Program-made: the position numbers and the translations under genes | Notes under the pieces: generated by a model | What the model was told of the DNA's origin: nothing | Database searches by the model: none | The model's input: only the letters and a program-made list of their open reading frames with translations | Origin: an uncultured Candidatus Saccharibacteria bacterium | Lineage (GTDB): Bacteria > Patescibacteriota > Minisyncoccia > Phycocordibacterales > GWA1-40-21 | Direction of reading: 5' to 3' | NCBI GenBank assembly: GCA_964583845.1 | Contig: CAZOXG010000002.1 | Location: forward strand, 1 to 41,118 | DNA: 41,118 nucleotides | Shown here: one piece after another, positions 3,779 to 34,504 of the stretch | Position numbering within the stretch: position 1 is the stretch's first letter | Layout: each line of letters opens with the position of its first letter

Positions 3779-3976
3779 AGTAGGAATTTCTTCCTCGACT
3801 AAAACTTCGTCGTCGGGCCACAAAGGCCACTTCCATTTTCTAACACGGAGTACCGTGAAGAAAATCAGGTCGCTCGGTTTTGTCTGGGCACGCTCTCGCA
3901 TGACTTTCTACTGAAAGTCATTGGCTCCGAGCTTCGAATCCTACTCGCAAGTGATAACATCACTTGCTTGGGTGCA
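3779..3976 (+). mobile_element. mini-element copy C1 (type-2 core variant), behind tRNA-Lys
   Basis: Left arm AGTAGGAATT. The core shares GGTCGCTCGGTTT..TGGGCACGC.TC-hairpin-CTCCGAGCT with copy G2. Right arm is TTCGAATCCTAC, then a 24-nt inserted hairpin, then TGGGTGCA, which is the tRNA-Lys 3' half in inverted orientation. Confidence 0.65.
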
Positions 3977-4014
3977 CAATTAAAAAAACTGCTACGCGCA
4001 GTTTTTTTTAATTG
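3977..4014. terminator. bidirectional terminator shared by copy C1 and tRNA-Lys
   Basis: CAATTAAAAAAACTGC-TACG-CGCAGTTTTTTTTAATTG palindrome. Confidence 0.65.
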
Positions 4015-4087
4015 TGCACCCAGTAGGATTCGAACCTACGACCTTGTCCTTAAGAGGGACCTGCTCTACCAACTGAGCTATGGATGC
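4015..4087 (-). tRNA. tRNA-Lys (anticodon CUU), no encoded CCA
   Basis: Minus-strand cloverleaf: acceptor GCATCCA/TGGGTGC, anticodon loop CTCTTAA, T arm with TTCGAAT loop. Confidence 0.9.
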
Positions 4088-5121: not shown

Positions 5122-5379
5122 GTGCCCAGGATGGGACTCGGTCAGGAATAATTTTCTTATCGACACAAGAAAATTTTCACGACCATTACATGGTCAGTAC
5201 ACCATTTTGGATATTTTATTTCGTTACACTCATAAAATATCTCACAAGGTCTTTCGGTTGGGTCCCTTACCCAATCCTCAACCTGCCTCGCGGCTGGGCA
5301 TTGCTATACCCAGACCCTCTGCCTAAGAAAAATCGGCAAAGGGTACGCTCCGCTTTTCGAGTTCCACCCTATCGGGCAC
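5122..5379 (+). mobile_element. mini-element copy D1 (composite/nested), outer copy behind tRNA-Leu(UAA)
   Basis: Left arm GTGCCCAGGATGGGACTCG matches the tRNA gene strand at 17/19. Then GTCAGGAATAATTTTCTT-ATCGACAC-AAGAAAATTTTCACGACC. A nested second core-like unit lies at about 5192-5245. Right arm is TTCGAGTTCCACCC-TAT-CGGGCAC. Confidence 0.7.
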
Positions 5380-5395
5380 ATACAAAAAAACAGCT

Positions 5396-5480
5396 TGGTG
5401 GACTCGGTCACAGGTTTTTGCTTGCTAGCAAAACCCGCGACCCCGACTCGGCCCGTCGGCCTCCGTCTTTCGAGTCCCAC
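5396..5480 (+). mobile_element. mini-element copy D2 (short type-1 core), inner copy behind tRNA-Leu(UAA)
   Basis: TGGTGGACTCG|GTCACAGGTTTTTGCTTGCTAGCAAAACCCGCGACCCCGACTCGGCCCGTCGGCCTCCGTCTT|TCGAGTCCCAC. Confidence 0.75.
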
Positions 5481-5481
5481 G

Positions 5482-5520
5482 ACCAAAACAAAAACGGCCA
5501 TAAGCCGTTTTTGTTTTGGT
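5482..5520. terminator. bidirectional terminator, overlaps the CCA end of tRNA-Leu(UAA)
   Basis: ACCAAAACAAAAACGGC-CATAA-GCCGTTTTTGTTTTGGT perfect palindrome. Confidence 0.7.
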
Positions 5521-5602
5521 GCCCGGGGTGGGACTCGAACCCGCACGGTGTTACCACCGAAAGATTTTAAGTCTTTTGCGTCTACCATTCCGCCACCCGG
5601 GC
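5517..5602 (-). tRNA. tRNA-Leu (anticodon UAA), type II, CCA encoded
   Basis: Acceptor GCCCGGG/CCCGGGC, anticodon stem AAAGA/TCTTT, loop CTTAAAA, T loop TTCGAGT, 3' ACCA. Confidence 0.92.
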
Positions 5603-5618
5603 GAATATATTTTTGGCC

Positions 5619-5743
5619 TTGAGGCCTGTGCAGAATGGTCAGGAATATTTTGTTCGCCGGCGCTCACAAAATTTCACGACCCTGGCTCGGCCCGGCTGAT
5701 TGCTATCAGCCGACTTCGTGGCCTCTGCCTTTCGATTCTGCCC
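5619..5743 (+). mobile_element. mini-element copy B (type-1 core), behind tRNA-Cys
   Basis: Left arm TTGAGGCCTGTGCAGAATG versus tRNA gene strand TTGAGGCCTAGGGCAGAATCG. Core is GTCAGGAATATTTTGT-TCGCCGGCGCTC-ACAAAATTTCACGACCCTGGCTCGGCC-CGGCTGAT/ATCAGCCG-..GGCCTCTGCCTT. Right arm TTCGATTCTGCCC. Confidence 0.8.
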
Positions 5744-5767
5744 GAAAAAACACTTTCGTGTTTTTTC
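5744..5767. terminator. bidirectional terminator between copy B and tRNA-Cys
   Basis: GAAAAAACAC-TTTC-GTGTTTTTTC. Confidence 0.65.
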
Positions 5768-5770
5768 TTG

Positions 5771-5842
5771 AGGCCTAGGGCAGAATCGAACTGCCGTATA
5801 GAGATTTTGCAGATCTCTGCCTTACCACTTGGCTACTAGGCC
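5771..5842 (-). tRNA. tRNA-Cys (anticodon GCA), discriminator U, no CCA
   Basis: Acceptor GGCCTAG/CTAGGCC, anticodon loop CTGCAAA, T arm GGCAG-TTCGATT-CTGCC. Confidence 0.92.
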
Positions 5843-15082: not shown

Positions 15083-15199
15083 GGAAAGGATTTGGTCATG
15101 GATAATTCACTAGTCGTCTCTCGTGAATTTCCACGACCCTGACTCGGCCACACTACCTGCTGGCAGTGGCTTCGCGGCCTCCGTCTTTCAAATCCTTCC
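15083..15199 (+). mobile_element. mini-element copy E (type-1 core), behind tRNA-Tyr
   Basis: GGAAAGGATTTG|GTCATGGATAATTCAC-TAGTCGTCTCTC-GTGAATTTCCACGACCCTGACTCGGCC-hairpin-GCGGCCTCCGTCTT|TCAAATCCTTCC. Confidence 0.8.
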
Positions 15200-15205
15200 T
15201 TGAGC

Positions 15206-15275
15206 AAAATTGGTTTCTTAACCAATTTTACAAAAGAAAAACACCAGTTTAATAATAAACCGGTGTTTTCTTTTG
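15206..15275. terminator. two consecutive AT-rich hairpins between copy E and tRNA-Tyr
   Basis: AAAATTGGT-TTCTTA-ACCAATTTT, then GAAAAACACC..GGTGTTTTC flanked by A-run and T-run. Confidence 0.55.
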
Positions 15276-15359
15276 TGCGCAGGGAAGGATTTGAACCTTC
15301 GTAGTCCATTGGACGATTGATTTACAGTCAATTGCGATTGACCACTCCGCCACCTGCGC
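15276..15359 (-). tRNA. tRNA-Tyr (anticodon GUA), type II, no CCA
   Basis: Acceptor GCGCAGG/CCTGCGC, anticodon loop CTGTAAA, long variable arm, T arm GAAGG-TTCAAAT-CCTTC. Confidence 0.92.
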
Positions 15360-18688: not shown

Positions 18689-18700
18689 TTACATAATTTA

Positions 18701-19297
18701 ATGTATAATATATTTGTGAAAATTGAACGACCGAAATCTAAACAACCACTTCCAGAAAATGCCAAACTAGTATACAAGGGTATAATTTTTGATACCTACC
18801 AATGGGAAGTAGATGATTATGATGGTACTAAGAAGACATTTGAAAAACTTAAGAGGCCAGATACAGTCATGATAATACCCGTCACTAATGATGGTGAAAT
18901 TATTCTTGCTAATCAAGAGCAACCGGGTAAACAAGTTTCCATTAGTTATCTTGGTGGAAGGGTTGATGAAGGTGAAGATGTGTTAAACGCTGCCAAAAGA
19001 GAATTATTGGAAGAGGCTGGATTAGAAGCGGATGAATGGATCTTGTTTAATGCTATGCAACCAGTTAGTAAGATAGAGTGGTCTGTCTATATATTTATAG
19101 CTAGAAATTGCAAAAAAGTTGCCGAGCAATGTTTAGATGGTGGTGAAAAAATTGAATTACTTAATGTAGATTTTGATAAGTTTATCGAGATGATTTTAGA
19201 TAAAGATTTTAGTGACTTTGGGTTAAGAATTAAATTTCTCGAAGCAAAAATAGATTCTGATAAGATGTCTGAGATTAAAAGATTAATCATTGGCTAG
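18701..19297 (+). CDS. Nudix hydrolase (ADP-ribose pyrophosphatase-like), canonical Nudix box
   Basis: GRVDEGEDVLNAAKRELLEEAGL fits GX5EX7REUXEEXGU exactly. Start moved to the ATG at 18701, since the track start (18593) overlaps rpmG and its terminator. Confidence 0.85.
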   Translation: MYNIFVKIERPKSKQPLPENAKLVYKGIIFDTYQWEVDDYDGTKKTFEKLKRPDTVMIIPVTNDGEIILANQEQPGKQVSISYLGGRVDEGEDVLNAAKRELLEEAGLEADEWILFNAMQPVSKIEWSVYIFIARNCKKVAEQCLDGGEKIELLNVDFDKFIEMILDKDFSDFGLRIKFLEAKIDSDKMSEIKRLIIG

Positions 19298-19338
19298 AAG
19301 ATTCATAATACCCGTCGTCACAGCTGAAGCATGTAAAC

Positions 19339-19462
19339 ATCAGATTCGGTCACGACTTTTTCTTTCGCCGTCGCTCAAGAAAAGTCTCGACCCTAGCTCA
19401 GCATTACTCGCTGGAGCTCGTAATAAGCTTGCGCTTTTCGAATCTGAGTGGGCCCGCATATT
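19339..19462 (+). mobile_element. mini-element copy F (type-1 core), behind tRNA-Trp
   Basis: CATCAGATTCG|GTCACGACTTTTTCTT-TCGCCGTCGCTC-AAGAAAAGTCTCGACCCTAGCTCAG-hairpin-CTTGCGCTTT|TCGAATCTGAGTGGGCCCGCATATT. The 26-nt right arm is a perfect inverted copy of the tRNA 3' half. Confidence 0.85.
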
Positions 19463-19489
19463 AAAAAAACTGCTTATTAGTAGTTTTTT
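19463..19489. terminator. AT-only hairpin at the centre of the 26-nt inverted repeat
   Basis: AAAAAACT/AGTTTTTT stem. The flanking arms extend the palindrome to 19437-19515. Confidence 0.6.
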
Positions 19490-19495
19490 AATATG

Positions 19496-19567
19496 CGGGC
19501 CCACTCAGATTCGAACTGAGAACCTCGCGTTTGGAGTGCGATGTTTTACCATTGAAACTATGGACCC
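19496..19567 (-). tRNA. tRNA-Trp (anticodon CCA), no encoded CCA end
   Basis: Acceptor GGGTCCA/TGGGCCC, anticodon stem TCGCA/CGCGA (imperfect), loop CTCCAAA, T arm CTCAG-TTCGAAT-CTGAG. Confidence 0.9.
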
Positions 19568-19608
19568 AAGCGCACTTATCTTATAATAAATAAGACCATT
19601 ACGCAAAT

Positions 19609-21598: not shown

Positions 21599-21728
21599 TG
21601 CCGAGAGCGAGACCCGGTTACGAATATTTTTCTTGTTGTCACAAGAAAAATTTCTCGACCCCGGCTCGGCCACTCTCTCTGGTGATAGTGGCTTTGCGGC
21701 CTCCGCCTTTCGAGTCTCTCTCCCGGCA
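21599..21728 (+). mobile_element. mini-element copy G1 (type-1 core), outer copy behind tRNA-Leu(CAA)
   Basis: TGCCGAGAGCGAGACCCG|GTTACGAATATTTTTCTTGT-TGTC-ACAAGAAAAATTTCTCGACCCCGGCTCGGCC-CCACT..AGTGG-CTTTGCGGCCTCCGCCTT|TCGAGTCTCTCTCCCGGCA. Confidence 0.85.
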
Positions 21729-21736
21729 AATACAAG

Positions 21737-21858
21737 TGCCGGATAGAGGACTCGCCCGCACCTCTCGTTTCGCCGTCGCTCAACTCGGTTTGGGCACCGC
21801 CTCACATTTTTGACTACTGTCAAAAATAGGTTCCGGCGTTCGAGTCTCTCTCCCGGCA
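21737..21858 (+). mobile_element. mini-element copy G2 (type-2 core), inner copy behind tRNA-Leu(CAA)
   Basis: TGCCGGATAGAGGACTCG|CCCGCACCTCTCGTTTCGCCGTCGCTCAACTCGGTTTGGGCACCGCCTCA-CATTTTTGACTACTGTCAAAAAT-AGGTTCCGGCGT|TCGAGTCTCTCTCCCGGCA. Confidence 0.8.
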
Positions 21859-21898
21859 CAAAAGAAAAACACTGGAATATTCCAGTGTTTTTCTTTTG
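21859..21898. terminator. bidirectional terminator between copy G2 and tRNA-Leu(CAA)
   Basis: CAAAAGAAAAACACTGG-AATATT-CCAGTGTTTTTCTTTTG perfect palindrome. Confidence 0.75.
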
Positions 21899-21981
21899 TG
21901 CCGGGAGAGAGACTCGAACTCTCACAGTGTTGCCACCGGTGGATTTTGAGTCCACTGCGTCTGCCATTCCGCCATCCCGGC
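21899..21981 (-). tRNA. tRNA-Leu (anticodon CAA), type II, no CCA
   Basis: Acceptor GCCGGGA/TCCCGGC, anticodon stem GTGGA/TCCAC, loop CTCAAAA, T arm GAGAG-TTCGAGT-CTCTC. Confidence 0.92.
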
Positions 21982-26291: not shown

Positions 26292-26372
26292 TTGTTGGTC
26301 TCCTTAGAATTGTTTGTCGTGCAGAAGAATTGCCTTCTGCTAATCCAAAAACACTATAACATTTTTTATTAG

Positions 26373-26424
26373 AAATGGCAAATTAAAACCCCACACCAGG
26401 ACTTCCGAAGGGAAGTGAGTTGGT
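26373..26424 (-). repeat. 52-bp direct repeat, copy 1 (terminator hairpin plus -35 box)
   Basis: AAATGGCAAATTAAAACCCCACACCAGGACTTCCGAAGGGAAGTGAGTTGGT. 49/52 identical to 28199-28250. On the minus strand: hairpin ACTTCC-CTTC-GGAAGT, then GGGGTTTTAATTTGCCA. Confidence 0.85.
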
Positions 26425-26446: not shown

Positions 26447-28123
26447 TTATTTTCCTGGAGAAAAAGCCTGATCAAAATCAATTAAATATAACCTAGGAAA
26501 ACGATTAAAATCTGGTTTACCATTTTCATTTCTAAAAAATCTTAGACAAAAGTTGCCATCGTGAGGGTGACCATGTTCAAAATTTATACTACTTAACACC
26601 GCCTTTATTTTATTTTTTTGTTCTTCAAGTTCAGATTCAAATTTAGTTGATATTTCTTTCCACCTAGCCAAACTAAGATCTAAGACTCCACTATACACCC
26701 TAATTGAACCATTCTTATTAATGCTAAATGATTGGATTGGTTCTATTGGAACGTAATCAAAACCAGCCTGCTGCCACAGTTTCCAATTCTCATATATAGA
26801 TTGCCACGATAGAAAAGCTTCTGGTGTAATTTCTCTTATTATCGTTTTGTCTTTTAAGTCACCACCAAGTAAAATAGTTTCTGAACCTGTCTTATCAAAA
26901 TTAGCTCGAGAGAATTTTTCTTTTCTTACTGCTCCATTTTTGTATAATGCTGGTTTAATCAAGTATTCTTCTAAACCTTTTTCCTTCATTAATTTATACA
27001 ACCCTTTCCTTTCATTTTTGGGAATATAGTCAATCATTCCAATTGATGAGGTTTGCACTTTAGGATCAACACTTTCTAAACTCTGTCTAATCCTTAGTAA
27101 AACATTCTTCCACAAGGAAGGCTTTTCCGGCTCAGAGACAAAATTAATGTTATCAACTGATAGTATTTGAATCTCTAGATTTGAATGAGACAAACCTTCC
27201 CTGATAAGACTAGCTCTCTCATTTACAGGAGCAAACCGAATATTTTCAGCCGATATTTTTTGTACTTCTGGGTTAGGGTGATTAAAACCGTCTTTAATAA
27301 GGAGTGTTATTTCATCTTTGGGAGCATCGCCCATCATTAAAGCTGATGTAATTTGAACTTCTGGATTTGAATGAGACAAACCTTCTCTAATAAGTGTTGA
27401 TCTTTCGTCTCCAAATGCTCTTTCAATTATTTTAACTGATTCCACCTGAACTTTTGGGTTAGGGTGTTTTAAACATTCTCTAATAAGATTAGCTATCATA
27501 TTTTCAGGAGCAAACCGAATATTTTCAGCCGATATTTTTTGTACTTCTGGATTAGAGTGATTTAAACCTTCTTCAATAAGCGATAATGTTTTAGTTACTG
27601 GAGCATTGTCCAATAATTTGGCCGATGTAATTTGAACTTCGGAGTCAGTACTATTTAATCCATTTTTGATTTTTTGTAAAACAATTTCTCGCAGAAAACC
27701 CTTTTGAGTTTTAGGTGCAAACCAAATAGTTTCAGACGAAATTATTTGTACTTCTGGGTTGAGATGACTTAGACCTTCTTCAATAAGTGGTGTTATCTCA
27801 TCTTCTGATATAAATTTAATAGCCTCGGCTGCTGCTTTTTGCACCTCAGGGTCAGAATTAGCTAAGCCTTCTTTAATAAGAAAGAATGTTTTTGAGTTAG
27901 GAGTGAATAGACTTTCATTAATTTCATGCACCAAAGGTGAAATTTTCTTCTCTTTATTTTTAGTAATAATTAAATCAATCTTCTCATTATTTCTAATTTT
28001 ATCCTCTTTGTATCTATCAAAACTATGTTCAGTTATCTGATTTTGCCCAGGAATTTCATACATTTTCAAATATTTTGGTAGTGGTGACTCAGGACTTTCA
28101 ATTTTTTGCACAGGTCTTTCCAT
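26447..28123 (-). CDS. HEAT-repeat protein (about 9 repeats of ~31 aa) with a C-terminal protein-kinase-like domain
   Basis: Repeats of EGLxHxNPEVQxxSAxxIxFAP. The C-terminus has HGHPHDGNFCL (catalytic-loop-like) and LYLIDFDQA (DFD). The ATG at 28123 is preferred (MERPVQ). Low G+C. Confidence 0.7.
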   Translation of the reverse strand: MERPVQKIESPESPLPKYLKMYEIPGQNQITEHSFDRYKEDKIRNNEKIDLIITKNKEKKISPLVHEINESLFTPNSKTFFLIKEGLANSDPEVQKAAAEAIKFISEDEITPLIEEGLSHLNPEVQIISSETIWFAPKTQKGFLREIVLQKIKNGLNSTDSEVQITSAKLLDNAPVTKTLSLIEEGLNHSNPEVQKISAENIRFAPENMIANLIRECLKHPNPKVQVESVKIIERAFGDERSTLIREGLSHSNPEVQITSALMMGDAPKDEITLLIKDGFNHPNPEVQKISAENIRFAPVNERASLIREGLSHSNLEIQILSVDNINFVSEPEKPSLWKNVLLRIRQSLESVDPKVQTSSIGMIDYIPKNERKGLYKLMKEKGLEEYLIKPALYKNGAVRKEKFSRANFDKTGSETILLGGDLKDKTIIREITPEAFLSWQSIYENWKLWQQAGFDYVPIEPIQSFSINKNGSIRVYSGVLDLSLARWKEISTKFESELEEQKNKIKAVLSSINFEHGHPHDGNFCLRFFRNENGKPDFNRFPRLYLIDFDQAFSPGK

Positions 28124-28198
28124 AGAAGAAATATAGCATAAAACTATATTAGTTTCGAATTTTGATAAAATATAAAAGTGTATATGGTAAGGCAATAA

Positions 28199-28250
28199 AA
28201 ATGGCAAATTAAAACCCCACACCAGGACTTCCGAGGGGAAGTGAACTGGT
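28199..28250 (-). repeat. 52-bp direct repeat, copy 2
   Basis: See 26373-26424. Lies 17 nt past the stop of 28268..28795 and supplies TTGCCA as the -35 box for the HEAT gene. Confidence 0.85.
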
Positions 28251-30411: not shown

Positions 30412-30495
30412 TTATTTTGTGTCTGCAACCTCAGCCAGTTTATGTGGATTATGATTAGGACAATTCTTATCACTACATCTATCTGGTATGGTCTT
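30412..30495 (-). pseudogene. displaced 3'-terminal fragment of topA (27 codons plus stop)
   Basis: Minus-strand translation is KTIPDRCSDKNCPNHNPHKLAEVADTK*. The first 20 aa are identical to the end of intact TopA, with 12/60 nt different and all differences synonymous. Confidence 0.8.
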
Positions 30496-30497
30496 TG

Positions 30498-30628
30498 GTC
30501 ACAAATATTTTCTCGCCGTCGCTCAAAAATTTTGCCGACCCCGGCTCAGTATTGCTCGTTGCTACTCGCAATATACTTCCGCCTCACAAAAACTAAAAAC
30601 AGACAGCGAAGACTGTCTGTTTCTTACA
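30498..30628 (+). mobile_element. mini-element copy H (type-1 core plus terminator), behind topA
   Basis: GTCACAAATATTTTC-TCGCCGTCGCTC-AAAAATTTTGCCGACCCCGGCTCAG-TATTGC..GCAATA-TACTTCCGCCTCAC, then the AAACAGACAG-6 nt-CTGTCTGTTT hairpin (30597-30622) directly before the topA stop. Confidence 0.85.
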
Positions 30629-32824
30629 TTAGTTTGTTAATTTATGCGGATTATGATTCGGACAATTCTTATCAGAACAGCGATCGGGAATAGTTTTTGT
30701 GCCAACCATCATCAACTCACCACATAACTTACATTTTTCTCCAGTTGGTTTAGTTTTGATTATATATTTGCAATCAGGATAATTTGAACAACTATAGAAA
30801 ATTCCAAATCGTCCACGCTTTTCAGTCATCATACCTTTTTTACACTTTGGACATTCAACACCAGTGGAGTTCAATCTCTCCATTTCTTTATCTTTTTTTA
30901 TAAACTTACATTTCGGATAATTACCACAAGCGATAAACTTACCAAATTTTCCTTCACGTTCAAACAAGTTTGATTTACCACATTGCGGGCAAAGTTCACC
31001 AGTATCTTTTGGTCCCGCAATTTCAATTCCGTCCATTTTAAGTGCTCCTTGACACTCTGGATATTTGGCGCAACTCAAAAACTTGCCAGTGCGTCCAAGC
31101 TTGATCACCATCGGTCCTTTACAAACTGGGCATTTAAATTCGGCACCTGCTTCACCAAGATTAGTAATTTTTTCTACTCCTTCTTTAGCCTTAACATCTG
31201 CTAAGAACGGGCCATAAAAATCCTTCAAAGTTTTGACGTATTGAGCTGTTCCGTTGGCAATATTGTCCAGTTTGTCTTCCATGTCGGCGGTAAAAGTATC
31301 ACTGATATATTTGCCAAAATTATCTTCCAAGAAAGTACTGACAGTCTCACCGGTGTCAGTTGGTTTGAGAGCTCTTTCTATTTTTTCAACATAACCACGA
31401 TCCTGAATCGTCTTAATAATAGAAGCATAAGTAGAAGGACGGCCAATACCTCTTTTTTCTAATTCTTTAATCAAACCCGCTTCAGTATAACGTGGTGGTG
31501 GTTCGGTACTTTTTTCCTGATCTTTAATTTCAATTAGTTTAAGAGTCTCACCAACAGTGATACTTGGTAGTTCTACATCTTCACCACGAGCCTGAGGGTC
31601 GGCGATTAACCAACCGTCAAAGATAACGCGGGACCCATTGGCGGTAAAATCTGGAATCTCACCAGTACCAATTTTTACAATTATTTTACTACGAGCGATT
31701 TTGGCATCAGTCATCTGAGAAGCCACAGTTCTTTGCCAAATCAATTTATAAAGTTTGGCTTGTTCAGGTGTAAAACGAGAACTAGTTTCTAAAGCAAAGT
31801 TAGTTGGACGGATGGCTTCGTGAGCTTCTTGGGCATTTTTACTTTTGGCAGCGAAAGTGCGAGGAGATAAATAATTTTCTCCATAGTTAGTTTTTATAGT
31901 TGCAAAGATTTTTTCTTGAGCTTCTTTGGAAAGGTTGGTACTGTCCGTACGCATATAACTGATGAAACCACCTTCGTAAAGTTTTTGAGCAATACTCATG
32001 GTTCGAGCCGGAGCAAAACCAAGACGGGAAGAAGCAGTTTGTTGCAAGGTGGAAGTGATGAATGGGGCTTTTGGTTGACGTTTAGCTTCGGTTTCATTTA
32101 GATCAGAAATCACCCAGGAATTTGTTTTGCCATAAGCAACAATACGTTTCATTTCTTCTTCGGTTTTTGGTTTTTCTTCACACTCTAAAGGCAAAGGTAA
32201 CTTTTTTGTGGTTTCAGTATCGGCAGTTATCACCCAATATTTTTCAGGAACAAATGCGCGAACTTCACGTTCGCGCTCTACAATAATACGTAGGGCTGGT
32301 GACTGAACACGTCCAGCGGATAGTCCGTAGCGAACTTTTTTCCAAATCAAACCAGAGAGATCGTAACCAACGAGACGATCTAAAACACGGCGAGCTTCTT
32401 GAGCTTGGCGTAAGTTCTCGTCAATTAAGCGTGGGTGAGTCAAAGCTTCTTCGATCGCGGATTTCGTGATTTCATGAAAAGCCACACGTTTTGGATTATG
32501 AAGACCAATAGCCTCCTTCAAATGCCAAGCAATTGCTTCACCTTCACGGTCGGGGTCAGTCGCAAGTAAAACTTCTTCTGCTTCACTAGAGAGTTTTTTT
32601 AATTCCGCGACCACTTTTTCTTTGCCCGGAGAAATTTCGTAAGTGGGAACGAAGCCTGCGGGAATATCAATCGCCTTTTTGTTACTTTTTGGTAAGTCAC
32701 GAATATGACCGATACTTGCCTTTACTATATAACCTTCACCGGCATATTTGGTTATTGTGTTGGCTTTGGCAGGGGACTCCACGATCAATAATTTAAAACT
32801 TTTTGGTGAACTTGTATTACTCAT
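30629..32824 (-). CDS. topA: DNA topoisomerase I with four C-terminal zinc ribbons
   Basis: Toprim start LLIVESPAKA, type IA core, and four CxxC..CxxC modules. The ATG at 32824 is preferred over the TTG at 32833. Confidence 0.93.
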   Translation of the reverse strand: MSNTSSPKSFKLLIVESPAKANTITKYAGEGYIVKASIGHIRDLPKSNKKAIDIPAGFVPTYEISPGKEKVVAELKKLSSEAEEVLLATDPDREGEAIAWHLKEAIGLHNPKRVAFHEITKSAIEEALTHPRLIDENLRQAQEARRVLDRLVGYDLSGLIWKKVRYGLSAGRVQSPALRIIVEREREVRAFVPEKYWVITADTETTKKLPLPLECEEKPKTEEEMKRIVAYGKTNSWVISDLNETEAKRQPKAPFITSTLQQTASSRLGFAPARTMSIAQKLYEGGFISYMRTDSTNLSKEAQEKIFATIKTNYGENYLSPRTFAAKSKNAQEAHEAIRPTNFALETSSRFTPEQAKLYKLIWQRTVASQMTDAKIARSKIIVKIGTGEIPDFTANGSRVIFDGWLIADPQARGEDVELPSITVGETLKLIEIKDQEKSTEPPPRYTEAGLIKELEKRGIGRPSTYASIIKTIQDRGYVEKIERALKPTDTGETVSTFLEDNFGKYISDTFTADMEDKLDNIANGTAQYVKTLKDFYGPFLADVKAKEGVEKITNLGEAGAEFKCPVCKGPMVIKLGRTGKFLSCAKYPECQGALKMDGIEIAGPKDTGELCPQCGKSNLFEREGKFGKFIACGNYPKCKFIKKDKEMERLNSTGVECPKCKKGMMTEKRGRFGIFYSCSNYPDCKYIIKTKPTGEKCKLCGELMMVGTKTIPDRCSDKNCPNHNPHKLTN

Positions 32825-32947
32825 TTCCAACAAGTATTACACGAAAATATCAAAACAGGCAAATTTTTGAAAAGTTTTGGTGAATAATTTTCGCACTTTT
32901 TTTAATAATATTGTATAATGAAACGGAAACTTATTGTTATTAAACTT

Positions 32948-33587: not shown

Positions 33588-33631
33588 AAAATCAGTCGGT
33601 CAATTCGCAAAGCGAATTGACCGACTGATTT
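33588..33631. terminator. bidirectional terminator
   Basis: AAATCAGTCGGTCAATTCGC-AAA-GCGAATTGACCGACTGATTT perfect palindrome. Confidence 0.8.
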
Positions 33632-34504
33632 TTACTTCAGGTATATTTGTCCTCCGTTCTCAGAAATCAGCCCCTTTATTTCCATTAAAGTTAAAACAGT
33701 ATTTAATTCAGTGATTGTTATATTGGCTTTGATTGCCAAGTCATCACGCTCTAGTGGTTCGGTTAAACATTCAATAATTTTTCTTTCTTCTGGTGAACAA
33801 TCGTCAAGATTTAAAGTTAAGTTGGCGGTTTTGGTTTGTAAGCCTAGAGCCTCTAAAATATCAGCACTTGAAGTTATTGGAGTCGCCCCGAGTTTCAAAA
33901 GTAAATGCGGTCCTTCCGATGTACTAGAAAAAATTGAACCAGGCACAGTAAGAACATCACGATTATAATCAGTGGCCATGCGAGCAGTTATTAAAGTGCC
34001 CGACTTGGCTTCGGCTTCTATGACTAAAATAGCGTGCGAGAGACCGGCCATAATACGATTACGTTGAGGAAACGACCAAGTGGTGGCTTTAAAATTTGGT
34101 TCAAATTCGGAAACAAGGGCTCCTCCTTTTTCAATTACTTTTTCAGCGAGTGATATATTAGTCGAAGGATAAATTGATTTTGGATCAAGACCAGAACCCG
34201 GTACAGCTATAGTCGGTAAACCAGCTTCGATTGCCGCTCGATGAGCTATGGTGTCAATCCCTAAAGCTAGACCCGAAACAATGCAAACCTTACTACCAGC
34301 TAGACCGCTTATTAATTTATGTACTATTTCGGCTCCATAATTGGTATATTTTCTAGAACCAACTACGCAGAGGAACTTGTACCCACTATTTTCTGATGGT
34401 AAATTTCCTGCCAGGTATAATTTTTGTGGTGGTTGAGGAATTTCTAGAAGCCTTTCTGGCCACTCGCTCCTTTCAAATTCACGAATATCAAATTTCATAT
34501 ACAT
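33632..34504 (-). CDS. dprA: DNA-processing protein DprA/Smf
   Basis: GSRKYTNYG..IVSGLALGIDTIAHRAA..AVPGSGLD Rossmann-like DprA core. Start ambiguous (34504, 34498, or TTG at 34516). Confidence 0.88.
   Translation of the reverse strand: MYMKFDIREFERSEWPERLLEIPQPPQKLYLAGNLPSENSGYKFLCVVGSRKYTNYGAEIVHKLISGLAGSKVCIVSGLALGIDTIAHRAAIEAGLPTIAVPGSGLDPKSIYPSTNISLAEKVIEKGGALVSEFEPNFKATTWSFPQRNRIMAGLSHAILVIEAEAKSGTLITARMATDYNRDVLTVPGSIFSSTSEGPHLLLKLGATPITSSADILEALGLQTKTANLTLNLDDCSPEERKIIECLTEPLERDDLAIKANITITELNTVLTLMEIKGLISENGGQIYLK

Follow-up and report, generated by a model that had tools for sequence, protein, structure and literature searches.

An inverted repeat of a tRNA-Trp 3' end belongs to a family of small, gene-less elements at tRNA ends in Candidatus Saccharibacteria and other bacteria

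Introduction

In an uncultured Candidatus Saccharibacteria bacterium (GCA_964583845.1, contig CAZOXG010000002.1), the tRNA-Trp gene is followed by an exact inverted copy of its own 3' half. What is this copy, how did it come to lie there, and is it anything more than one arm of a terminator? We addressed these questions in the 41,118-nt stretch of DNA that holds the locus, hereafter the window, from a genome that is also represented by GCA_037138255.1. Genomes of CPR/Patescibacteria and Elusimicrobia are thought to be poor in mobile DNA. Outside the elements described here the window is ordinary chromosome, encoding ClpB, IF-2, TopA, SerS, MiaA, RelA and DprA, and Pfam and NCBIfam scans of its ORFs found no mobile-element genes. 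We find that the inverted copy is part of an element, copy F, that belongs to a family of small (about 120-250 nt) non-coding, gene-less elements at tRNA ends.

Results

The inverted repeat extends over 32 nt and forms a stable fold

The initial annotation described a 26-nt perfect inverted repeat of the tRNA-Trp 3' half with a 27-nt spacer. The 26-mer TTCGAATCTGAGTGGGCCCGCATATT has two exact matches in the whole window, at 19437-19462 (+) and 19490-19515 (-), where none is expected by chance and where two matches were obtained in 0 of 100 shuffles even with 3 mismatches allowed. The true perfect pairing is longer: the arms are 100% complementary over 32 nt (19437-19468 and 19484-19515) with 15 nt between them, and the 26-nt description is the same structure with the A and T runs left uncounted. 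The right arm starts at T54 in the T-loop, takes in the 3' strands of the T-stem and of the acceptor together with the discriminator, and ends after 11 nt of trailer. Folded as single-stranded DNA, 19330-19520 reaches -55.7 kcal/mol, compared with -19.7 +/- 3.2 for shuffled sequences (z = -11.4), and the RNA fold of 19330-19490 also beats shuffles (z = -4.2).

As a control we searched the 200 nt downstream of tRNA-Trp for inverted exact matches to the 26-mer of the tRNA 3' end and recorded the longest match. At element-free related tRNA-Trp loci (n = 40) this match is 4-8 nt and terminators never reach into the tRNA, at element-bearing loci (n = 8) it is mostly 9-13 nt with one locus at 6 nt, and at the window locus it is 26 nt by the same measure. 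These values bear directly on the simplest explanation, an ordinary tRNA terminator whose stem happens to reach into the tRNA with no element involved. The centre of the palindrome does have the A-run, weak stem and T-run of such a terminator, and the trailer halves covary among relatives, but the arm is contiguous with a conserved core found at 120 or more loci and the core-free loci lack any comparable inverted match, which leaves this explanation scarcely tenable. The proposal that the tRNA and the element converge on one shared terminator has to be qualified: the centre resembles a bidirectional hairpin, terminator-like in its sequence and common to the tRNA and the element strand, although a consensus terminator scan gave no call at 19463-19489.

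Copy F is one of ten copies in the window

A covariance model of the core (model R1) recovers 10 copies in the 41-kb window with E-values, which are rough, from 9e-28 to 4e-5, bearing out the view of F as one copy of a repeated element. One or two copies lie downstream of each of the seven tRNA genes in the window, convergent with the gene every time, and one lies at the 3' end of topA. The parts of copy F and its target are as follows, the two core hairpins being defined by alignment, covariation and the covariance model.

19340-19348, + strand: copy 3, residual left direct repeat TCAGATTCG, identical to the tRNA-Trp gene strand at 19505-19513
19348-19392, + strand: core hairpin HP1 (GGTC...GACC)
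19396-19434, + strand: core hairpin HP2 (AGCTCAGCATTACTCGCTGGAGCTCGTAATAAGCTTGCGC region)
19437-19462 (perfect pairing to 19468), + strand: copy 2, inverted copy of the tRNA-Trp 3' part, left palindrome arm
19463-19489: palindrome centre, A7, weak 6-bp stem (ACTGCT/AGTAGT), T6
19484-19515, - strand: copy 1, functional tRNA-Trp 3' part and trailer, right palindrome arm
19495-19567, - strand: tRNA-Trp(cca) gene, insertion target

The other nine copies, all located with the covariance model, are:

2687-2788, - strand: copy A core, hp3 kept, 103.6 bits, convergent and downstream of tRNA-Leu(tag) 2546-2627
3868-3947, + strand: copy B, divergent core, hp3 kept, 23.3 bits, E = 4e-5, adjoining tRNA-Lys(ctt) 4014-4087
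5140-5227, + strand: copy C1, distal member of a tandem pair at tRNA-Leu(taa)
5406-5483, + strand: copy C2, proximal member at tRNA-Leu(taa) 5517-5602
5637-5745, + strand: copy D, at tRNA-Cys 5770-5842
15094-15201, + strand: copy E, at tRNA-Tyr 15275-15359
21616-21723, + strand: copy G1, distal at tRNA-Leu(caa)
21753-21853, + strand: copy G2, proximal at tRNA-Leu(caa) 21898-21981
30497-30599, + strand: copy H, at the 3' end of topA (30629-32833, - strand)

In copy F, whose core matches the covariance model at 19348-19451 (80.6 bits, E = 2.7e-21), 19340-19348 pairs with 19439-19447 to form a closing stem that closes a three-way junction. HP1 carries an invariant apical loop, TCGCCGTCGCTC, at 19365-19376 and a conserved bulged T, and copy 2 spans the T-loop, T-stem 3' strand, acceptor 3' strand, discriminator and first trailer bases. 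The G2 arms (21838-21878 and 21879-21919) form a perfect palindrome of 82 nt with 41-nt arms. Copy H has only its own terminator hairpin and lies between 59-nt direct repeats that represent the coding 3' end of topA (30439-30497 and 30641-30699, 83% identical).

The nine tRNA-linked copies have arm-pair scores of 26-68 against a shuffle maximum of 19-25, and their DNA folds reach z-scores of -8 to -16, with hp3 forming a side branch in A and B. A foldable arm pair is thus present in 9 of 9 tRNA-linked copies, as a universal rod-like arm would predict, but the uninterrupted rod is not the family norm, and the extent of the pair varies from the T-loop only, or the acceptor and trailer only, to the whole 3' half.

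A conserved core is joined to target-derived arms

Across the family, the element strand reads copy 3 (direct repeat), core, copy 2 (inverted), a terminator-like palindrome and copy 1 (the functional 3' end), a layout that agrees with the make-up first proposed from F itself, in which a replacement tRNA 3' end, a loop and the complement of that end are joined to a core. Copy 2 pairs first with copy 3 and, because copy 1 equals copy 3, also with the functional tRNA end; the inverted repeat of F is this second pairing. The core of about 100 nt comprises two hairpins, HP1 (GGTCAC...GACC) followed by HP2 (GGCTCG...CCGCC), and the consensus of 110 copies starts with GGTCAC and ends with CCGCC-TTTCGA. 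The 12-nt HP1 loop is invariant in the family, and the bulged T is conserved. In many copies a third hairpin, hp3 (e.g. ACGCGAGCAAAGCAGTTTGCTCGCT), splits copy 2 exactly between the T-stem and acceptor 3' strands. We considered, and rejected, a kissing contact of the HP2 and hp3 loops (CTGCT and AGCAG, respectively), since these loops are complementary in many copies but show no covariation (L021, L028, L032, L052).

The junctions fall into two classes. In the T-loop class the repeat ends ...GGAATCG/GTCAC, between T55 and C56 of the tRNA, and the direct repeat in tRNAs runs from C56 to the 3' end; these repeats are 17-28 nt long, often 100% identical, and end ...TCG/GTCAC in the T-loop. In the short class the repeat stops at a point 3-4 nt within the tRNA 3' end and copy 2 measures no more than about 10 nt; copies at topA, rplL and other protein genes resemble this class. 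Repeat lengths across loci are 10, 17-28, 43 and 57-59 nt with a fixed inner end, and in every class, topA and rplL included, the closing stem abuts the core. The arms of one core family match more than 20 different tRNAs, and one sub-family carries a generic T-loop copy, TTCTCATCC, that is mismatched to the local tRNA. At three further loci (L128, L144 and L165) another core is embedded in this layout, which suggests a superfamily.

Elements occupy tRNA and tmRNA genes of CPR bacteria and Elusimicrobia

An exact-pattern scan of one genome per species returned at least 120 loci. Among the matches listed, nearly all fall in CPR/Patescibacteria or Elusimicrobia, and the CPR groups represented are Saccharibacteria, Paceibacterota, Nomura-, Kaiser-, Taylor- and Moranbacteria. 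A tRNA gene lies within 400 nt downstream in 86 of 121 listed matches, convergent in 86 of 86 and with at least 18 tRNA identities, in a locus set that is biased to the TCGCCGKCGCTC sub-family by its selection with an exact pattern. The covariance model finds 135 copies in 100 loci, with 96 tRNA-convergent, 3 tmRNA-convergent and 1 same-strand, so that, of the 100 copies that have a tRNA or tmRNA gene in the 450 nt downstream, 99 are convergent with it. In these 100 loci 93 of 154 tRNA and tmRNA genes (~60%) are occupied. Rfam confirmed 3 more tmRNA targets, and other targets are the 3' end of topA (9 genomes and the window), rplL, a site beyond a 16S gene and a few protein genes. The closest named relatives of this bacterium among the loci compared belong to Taylorbacteria/Paceibacterota, at 65-68% nucleotide identity. 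A phage or plasmid origin was rejected: the core pattern had no match in 2.9 million viral contigs, and blastn of the core against phage and plasmid collections returned no match.

Pairing in the core resembles that of DNA, not RNA

In an alignment of 110 cores, compensatory double changes occur in 19 of 26 predicted pairs, and one-sided G-U changes are almost absent. Variable core pairs contain 27 G-T and 36 A-C combinations of about 2,250 cells, whereas 165 tRNAs encoded at the same loci have 78 G-U and 6 A-C in their acceptor and T stems. The core thus covaries without the G-U preference that these tRNA stems display, which points to folding as DNA and away from an RNA gene. The sequence pattern points to strand-symmetric pairing, as in DNA hairpins or a cruciform, rather than to a functional RNA; a double-stranded cruciform, or a need for both strands to fold, would make G-T just as scarce, which counts against the single-strand reading set out below.

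These data weigh against the alternative that the element is a small RNA gene or 3'-UTR module opposite the tRNA, with a 3' end that mimics the T-arm/acceptor minihelix and stops at the shared terminator; such a mimic might, for instance, serve CCA-adding or processing enzymes as a decoy or a substrate. Such a module would account for the stability of the RNA fold of 19330-19490, for the T-run after the central hairpin and for a closing stem that is minihelix-like, since reverse-complementing the acceptor 3' strand yields the acceptor 5' strand. Besides the missing G-U excess, it is opposed by the T-loop bases, which are paired and not looped, and by the filled/empty polymorphism and pseudo-3'-ends described below, which show insertion. 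A consensus scan of the element region found no promoter-like site, and because only the target repeat is conserved upstream of GGTCAC there is no room for a conserved promoter. Rfam offers the core no family: on the window only tRNA reaches the gathering score, and at E <= 10 on 19250-19600 nothing credible covers the core, the sub-threshold matches being hairpin-type miRNA on the palindrome arms and weak snoRNA-type noise over the core. We consider an RNA module very unlikely, and the earlier suggestion of a plus-strand transcript ending in a tRNA 3'-half mimic is disfavoured on the same grounds, the missing G-U preference and the lack of promoter space.

Two further candidates were rejected by inspection, namely a hammerhead or other ribozyme in the core, which has no CUGANGA/GAAA, and a split or permuted tRNA or tmRNA-like domain, the tRNA genes being complete (54-70 bits).

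The elements have been inserted at tRNA 3' ends

At a tRNA-Tyr gene we found a filled/empty pair, in which locus L151 carries the element and locus L130 is empty with its original terminator. The extra 139 nt of L151 consist of a 117-nt element and a second copy of the 22-nt TTTGTGCGTCGAGAGGGATTCG; the left flank is identical at 68 of 70 positions and the tRNA-Tyr gene at 100%, while the contigs diverge upstream of the tRNA. This pair, the one clean pair found, shows real insertion or excision. Among 52 metagenomic loci that share the 5' half of this tRNA-Trp, about 40 are element-free, and the core is confined to a few genomes and is multi-copy where found. Tandem arrays occur at single tRNAs, both in the window (C1-C2, G1-G2) and elsewhere (L023, L043, L133), with the distal units more decayed. 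The filled/empty pair, the tandem arrays and the lineage-specific multi-copy distribution together lead us to conclude that the elements were inserted. The left repeat at topA represents a pseudo-3'-end in decay, with 83% identity in the window and 57/57 identical positions in L080. We rejected a diversity-generating retroelement at this repeat, as its two copies also differ at positions other than A.

No empty site could be assigned for the window tRNA-Trp, as only two loci, L142 and L148, share its T-arm and both have the element; the closest relatives carry F, G1 and G2 as orthologous, fixed insertions. Apparent strain polymorphism at the window loci was also discarded, because contigs encoding an identical PAP2 protein represent the same genome (99.9%) and end inside the palindromes.

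Short-read assemblies break at perfect palindromes, as two public contigs of this genome do within F and G2; these palindromes are worth masking or annotating in analyses of tRNA flanks.

No recombinase, transposase or reverse transcriptase was found by Pfam and NCBIfam searches of the window ORFs and of recurrent ORF clusters near about 150 copies, and the copies contain no ORFs. We clustered 931 ORFs from 172 loci and annotated the 10 recurrent clusters; none was retained as a partner enzyme, the clusters being housekeeping (MiaA, alanine racemase, ParB, FtsH, RelA, AlaRS, RecG and others) or lacking a recombinase match.

One way to explain the insertions is that the core alone was inserted and the target was duplicated in place, for example through widely staggered nicks or target-primed synthesis, with the inverted copy and the perfect palindromes arising later, purely by quasi-palindrome template switching, and having no mimic role. 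Repeat lengths that vary from 10 to 57-59 nt around a fixed inner end suit this explanation, as do the sub-family with the mismatched generic T-loop copy and the exact erasure of hp3 at two window loci. The repeat also enters the non-conserved trailer at L021 and L048, with residual similarity past 22 nt at L151, and repeats that cross into the trailer fit in-place target-site duplication better than an element-borne replacement end; that the repeat reaches about the gene end favours an element-borne repeat, as in integrase attP logic. On the other side, the position of hp3 within the inverted copy is fixed in many phyla, which tells us that this copy belongs to the organisation of the element and did not arise as a chance by-product. 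In all classes the core is directly adjoined by the closing stem, and no reverse transcriptase or transposase was seen near the copies. In-place duplication alone is, in our judgement, improbable.

Equally improbable, we believe, is that the elements derive from ordinary tyrosine-integrase islands with a T-loop target in tRNA and tmRNA genes, either as minimal remnants or as non-autonomous (CIME-like, attP-only) descendants, in which case the core would be an arm region bound as a duplex by integrase and accessory proteins and the inverted copy would lie among core-type inverted binding sites. Tyrosine-integrase elements reportedly occupy tRNA and tmRNA genes and include a T-loop sublocation class. 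The elements studied here share with them the tRNA/tmRNA 3' target, a junction in the T-loop, where the crossover would lie, a direct repeat that extends from there to the gene end and restores the gene, tandem arrays, occasional protein-gene 3' targets alongside tmRNA and precise empty sites. Their attL/attR-type repeats with a restored gene measure 17-28 nt in the T-loop class, 22 nt at L151/L130 and 57-59 nt at topA. Also in keeping with an island origin, cargo ORFs are stacked between elements at a tRNA-Ser gene (L079), and an AbiE island lies at the same tRNA (L091). Unlike integrase islands, the whole element is uniformly tiny at 120-250 nt and holds no integrase or any other gene, no integrase lies beside any of about 150 copies, and the core was found neither in the 2.9 million viral contigs nor in the phage or plasmid collections. 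Integrase islands likewise differ from a family with a conserved covarying hairpin pair, an internal inverted target copy and ~60% tRNA occupancy. Finally, stem sequence is free to vary while pairing is kept (19 of 26 pairs compensatory), which argues for hairpin pairing and against duplex binding sites of defined sequence.

The perfect arm of copy F arose by loss of hp3

Two relatives of the window locus reveal how the perfect arm came about. L142 is a close syntenic relative (79-95% nucleotide identity) and L148 is somewhat more distant, and both have orthologous elements at tRNA-Trp and tRNA-Leu(caa). At both loci in both relatives copy 2 holds a 25-nt hp3, and the window lacks exactly those 25 nt at both loci, which leaves contiguous tRNA sequence and perfect arms of 32 nt (F) and 41 nt (G2). 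From this exact loss at two loci we conclude that the rod is a derived, homogenised, lineage-specific palindrome and not the working form. An uninterrupted arm of 26-32 nt can therefore no longer be taken as the normal state of the family, as hp3 splits the arm in L142, L148 and most T-loop-class copies.

The trailer halves differ among the three genomes (window, L142 and L148), yet each is still a perfect palindrome. From the sequences of the three genomes we infer an ongoing homogenisation of the arms, with the tRNA arm, which is under selection, as the template. This might proceed through intra-strand template switching (quasi-palindrome correction), which is an established mutational process, or through conversion of one inverted repeat by the other. 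The decay of copy 3 has taken a different course in each genome; the left direct repeat is longer in L148 (GGGTCCACTCAGTTCG), and the window keeps only the 9-nt TCAGATTCG. Copy F is old and fixed and, because its closing stem has decayed to 9 bp, it may no longer be mobile.

A folded single strand may mediate insertion

In our main reading, to which we assign a probability of about 0.55, F is an old, fixed member of a family of insertion elements whose homing sites are tRNA and tmRNA 3' ends and, now and then, the 3' ends of topA, rplL or other genes. Insertion in the family is orientation-specific and occurs at a fixed point in the T-loop or gene end, the gene is kept intact by the direct repeat, and an internal complement of the target abuts a DNA-type folded core. 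The element would be inserted, and at times precisely lost, via a folded single-stranded form, whose closing stem would mimic the target site as a duplex next to a core that a protein recognises; a candidate trans-acting enzyme would work at the T-loop. Once the element is in place, the arms would be homogenised against the selected tRNA arm, by gene conversion or by template switching within the strand; in the window lineage, this homogenisation would have erased hp3 and produced the perfect arms of F and G2, which may now also act as a tRNA terminator hairpin.

That the folded strand presents its closing stem as a target duplex beside an enzyme-recognised core is a tentative component of this reading, drawn by analogy with attC and CTX attP(+) or with the pairing of guide and flank in IS200/IS605, and we regard it as possible rather than probable. 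The initial annotation had compared the arms with folded single-strand substrates such as integron attC and the CTX-phage attP hairpin. The DNA-like pairing of the core fits this comparison better than the transcript alternative, and a putative folded target mimic of the attC/CTX kind is, as an analogy, compatible with the data; no recombinase was found in or near the copies. It counts against the lead reading that one core family carries arms for more than 20 different tRNAs. A variant that we think rather unlikely is that the elements are guide-bearing DNA parasites, seemingly autonomous though without genes, in which the inverted copy is a DNA guide that chooses the insertion site by pairing with the target strand, while a host or trans enzyme would read only the three-way junction.

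Discussion

The bottom strand of integron attC and the (+) strand of CTX-phage attP, the latter used by XerCD, are folded single-strand recombination sites. The elements resemble these sites in keeping structure over stem sequence, in lacking a G-U signature, in their bulged base and in having a stem able to reproduce the partner site in duplex form; they also share a fixed orientation to the neighbouring gene and, at L079, an ORF-element-ORF-element stack at one locus. The nature of attC as single-stranded DNA has been discussed (PMC5737381). In the elements a conserved apical part stands on a variable, target-specific basal stem, the reverse of attC, and the consensus of 110 copies contains no attC boxes (RYYYAAC...GTTRRRY). 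Nor do the copies form attC cassette arrays: they follow tRNA, tmRNA and topA genes, L079 is the only locus with ORFs between copies, and no intI is present. CTX-type IMEX that use XerCD differ in their target, which is dif, whereas the elements are found at the T-loop of tRNA and tmRNA genes and at the 3' ends of tRNA, topA and rplL genes.

Among elements mobilised by other enzymes, the PATEs of IS200/IS605 and the REP elements of RAYT are likewise gene-less multi-copy hairpins with a bulged T and strand- and orientation-specific insertion, and IS200/IS605 elements are known to recognise flanks through base pairing with a guide inside the element. These have no direct repeat and use 4-5-nt targets, whereas our elements have repeats of 10-59 nt and a core with a three-way junction and a 12-nt invariant loop; no TnpA or RAYT (Y1 transposase) was found in the sequence examined, which comprised individual loci. 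MITEs and palindromic repeats (Correia/NEMIS, RPE, BOX, RUP) are comparably small, non-coding, abundant in small genomes and often terminators. Unlike MITEs, the elements have neither terminal inverted repeats nor a short fixed target duplication; they begin with GGTCAC at one end, have a variable target-derived other end and a variable repeat length, and lie in strict orientation at a specific gene 3'-end position. Casposons and Cas1-type integration share tRNA 3' ends, target duplication and tandem arrays with our family, but casposons are 8-20 kb long, carry genes for Cas1 and a polymerase and duplicate ~14-15 bp of target, and no such genes were found here.

The element therefore fails the defining tests of the systems compared, with no integrase, no R/L boxes, no dif target and with direct repeats present. 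It shares its target logic with integrase islands and its folded DNA with attC, CTX and HUH hairpins, and we class it as a site-specific non-autonomous insertion element. We found no earlier description of it in full-text searches of the literature (the 224-motif paper included), in Rfam or in viral, phage and plasmid collections.

If this reading holds, CPR/Patescibacteria and Elusimicrobia would harbour a very successful, unannotated class of structured DNA element, one that sits on ~60% of sampled tRNA and tmRNA genes and supplies their terminators. The combination of a conserved protein handle with a variable, target-matched stem suggests that a gene-less DNA element selects its site by nucleic-acid pairing, which would be relevant to research on mobile DNA and to the discovery of genome-engineering tools. 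Should the inverted copy prove to be a guide, the family would amount to a programmable, DNA-guided single-strand insertion system on nearly every tRNA gene of many CPR and Elusimicrobia genomes.

Assembly breaks at copies F and G2

Public short-read contigs of the window's own genome stop within the palindromes of G2, the element copy at tRNA-Leu(caa), and F, the copy at tRNA-Trp, and assemblies are fragmented by these two elements. The contig ends lie at:

window 21812, ends of contigs L173 and L174
window 19486, end of contig L175

Directly upstream of copy F, the Nudix ORF within window 18700-19330 is missing in the close syntenic relative L142, where the counterpart interval (L142:3190-3270) holds only a terminator hairpin.

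Other repeated or palindromic features are found elsewhere in the window:

26447-28222, minus strand, HEAT-repeat ORF
33588-33632, perfect palindrome, 21-nt arms and 3-nt loop
35893-35937, perfect palindrome, 21-nt arms and 3-nt loop

The HEAT-repeat ORF holds 93-nt tandem repeats at window 27134-27804 and is flanked by a pair of 55-nt repeats (26370-26424 and 28196-28250; 93% identical), within which lies a small hairpin. The two palindromes, located between convergent or adjacent genes, are probably ordinary terminators.

Variation in element arms and at tRNA-Trp

In one element sub-family, comprising rows L007, L012, L053, L057, L079, L100 and L106 of the core alignment together with L151:1130-1480, the inverted T-loop copy reads TTCTCATCC or TTCTCGTCC in place of the local TTCGA(A/T)TCC, which results in an unpaired bubble of 2-3 nt directly beside the junction. 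This bubble recalls the unpaired central regions of folded recombination sites.

Downstream of tRNA-Trp, an element-type layout surrounds a different, unrelated-looking core in L128, L144 and L165, and is comprised of a tRNA 3'-end direct repeat of 21-24 nt, TTTTCGAGTCC, a hairpin like the one that splits the inverted copy in many elements (hp3), and an acceptor copy. In element-free genomes, a second conserved block of ~90 nt (...GGTTCTAAGCCCGAG..GGGTCGAA..CCTCAAAATATCCTTAAAAACTA..TCGTGCTAGC..TTGGCGGGCCC) adjoins the tRNA-Trp 3' end; it is present in L121, L122, L126, L129, L135, L158 and L163, with a variant form in L132, L141, L150 and L157. Of the two tRNA 3' ends checked for this in the window, that of tRNA-Leu(taa) (5517-5602) apparently has its CCA encoded in the gene (…GGGCACCA), and that of tRNA-Trp does not.

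Elements beyond rRNA genes and stacked at tRNA genes

Elements convergent to the 16S rRNA gene also occur in L056:1-1900 and L093:7090-8000, one copy in each, 200-1300 nt past the gene's 3' end, and in L056 a match to group II intron D1-D4 sits between gene and element. At tRNA-Ser(gct) in L079:1950-4850, the order is tRNA, element, DUF4238 ORF, element, 384-aa ORF, element, with a decayed tRNA-Ser 3'-end copy preceding every element. Because cargo genes sit between the elements, this stack looks like a cassette array. In L091:2500-4700, an element has beside it a direct-repeat copy of a tRNA 3' end that is truncated past its acceptor part; an AbiEii/DUF6088 toxin-antitoxin island comes next, and the same tRNA is therefore used by a larger island.
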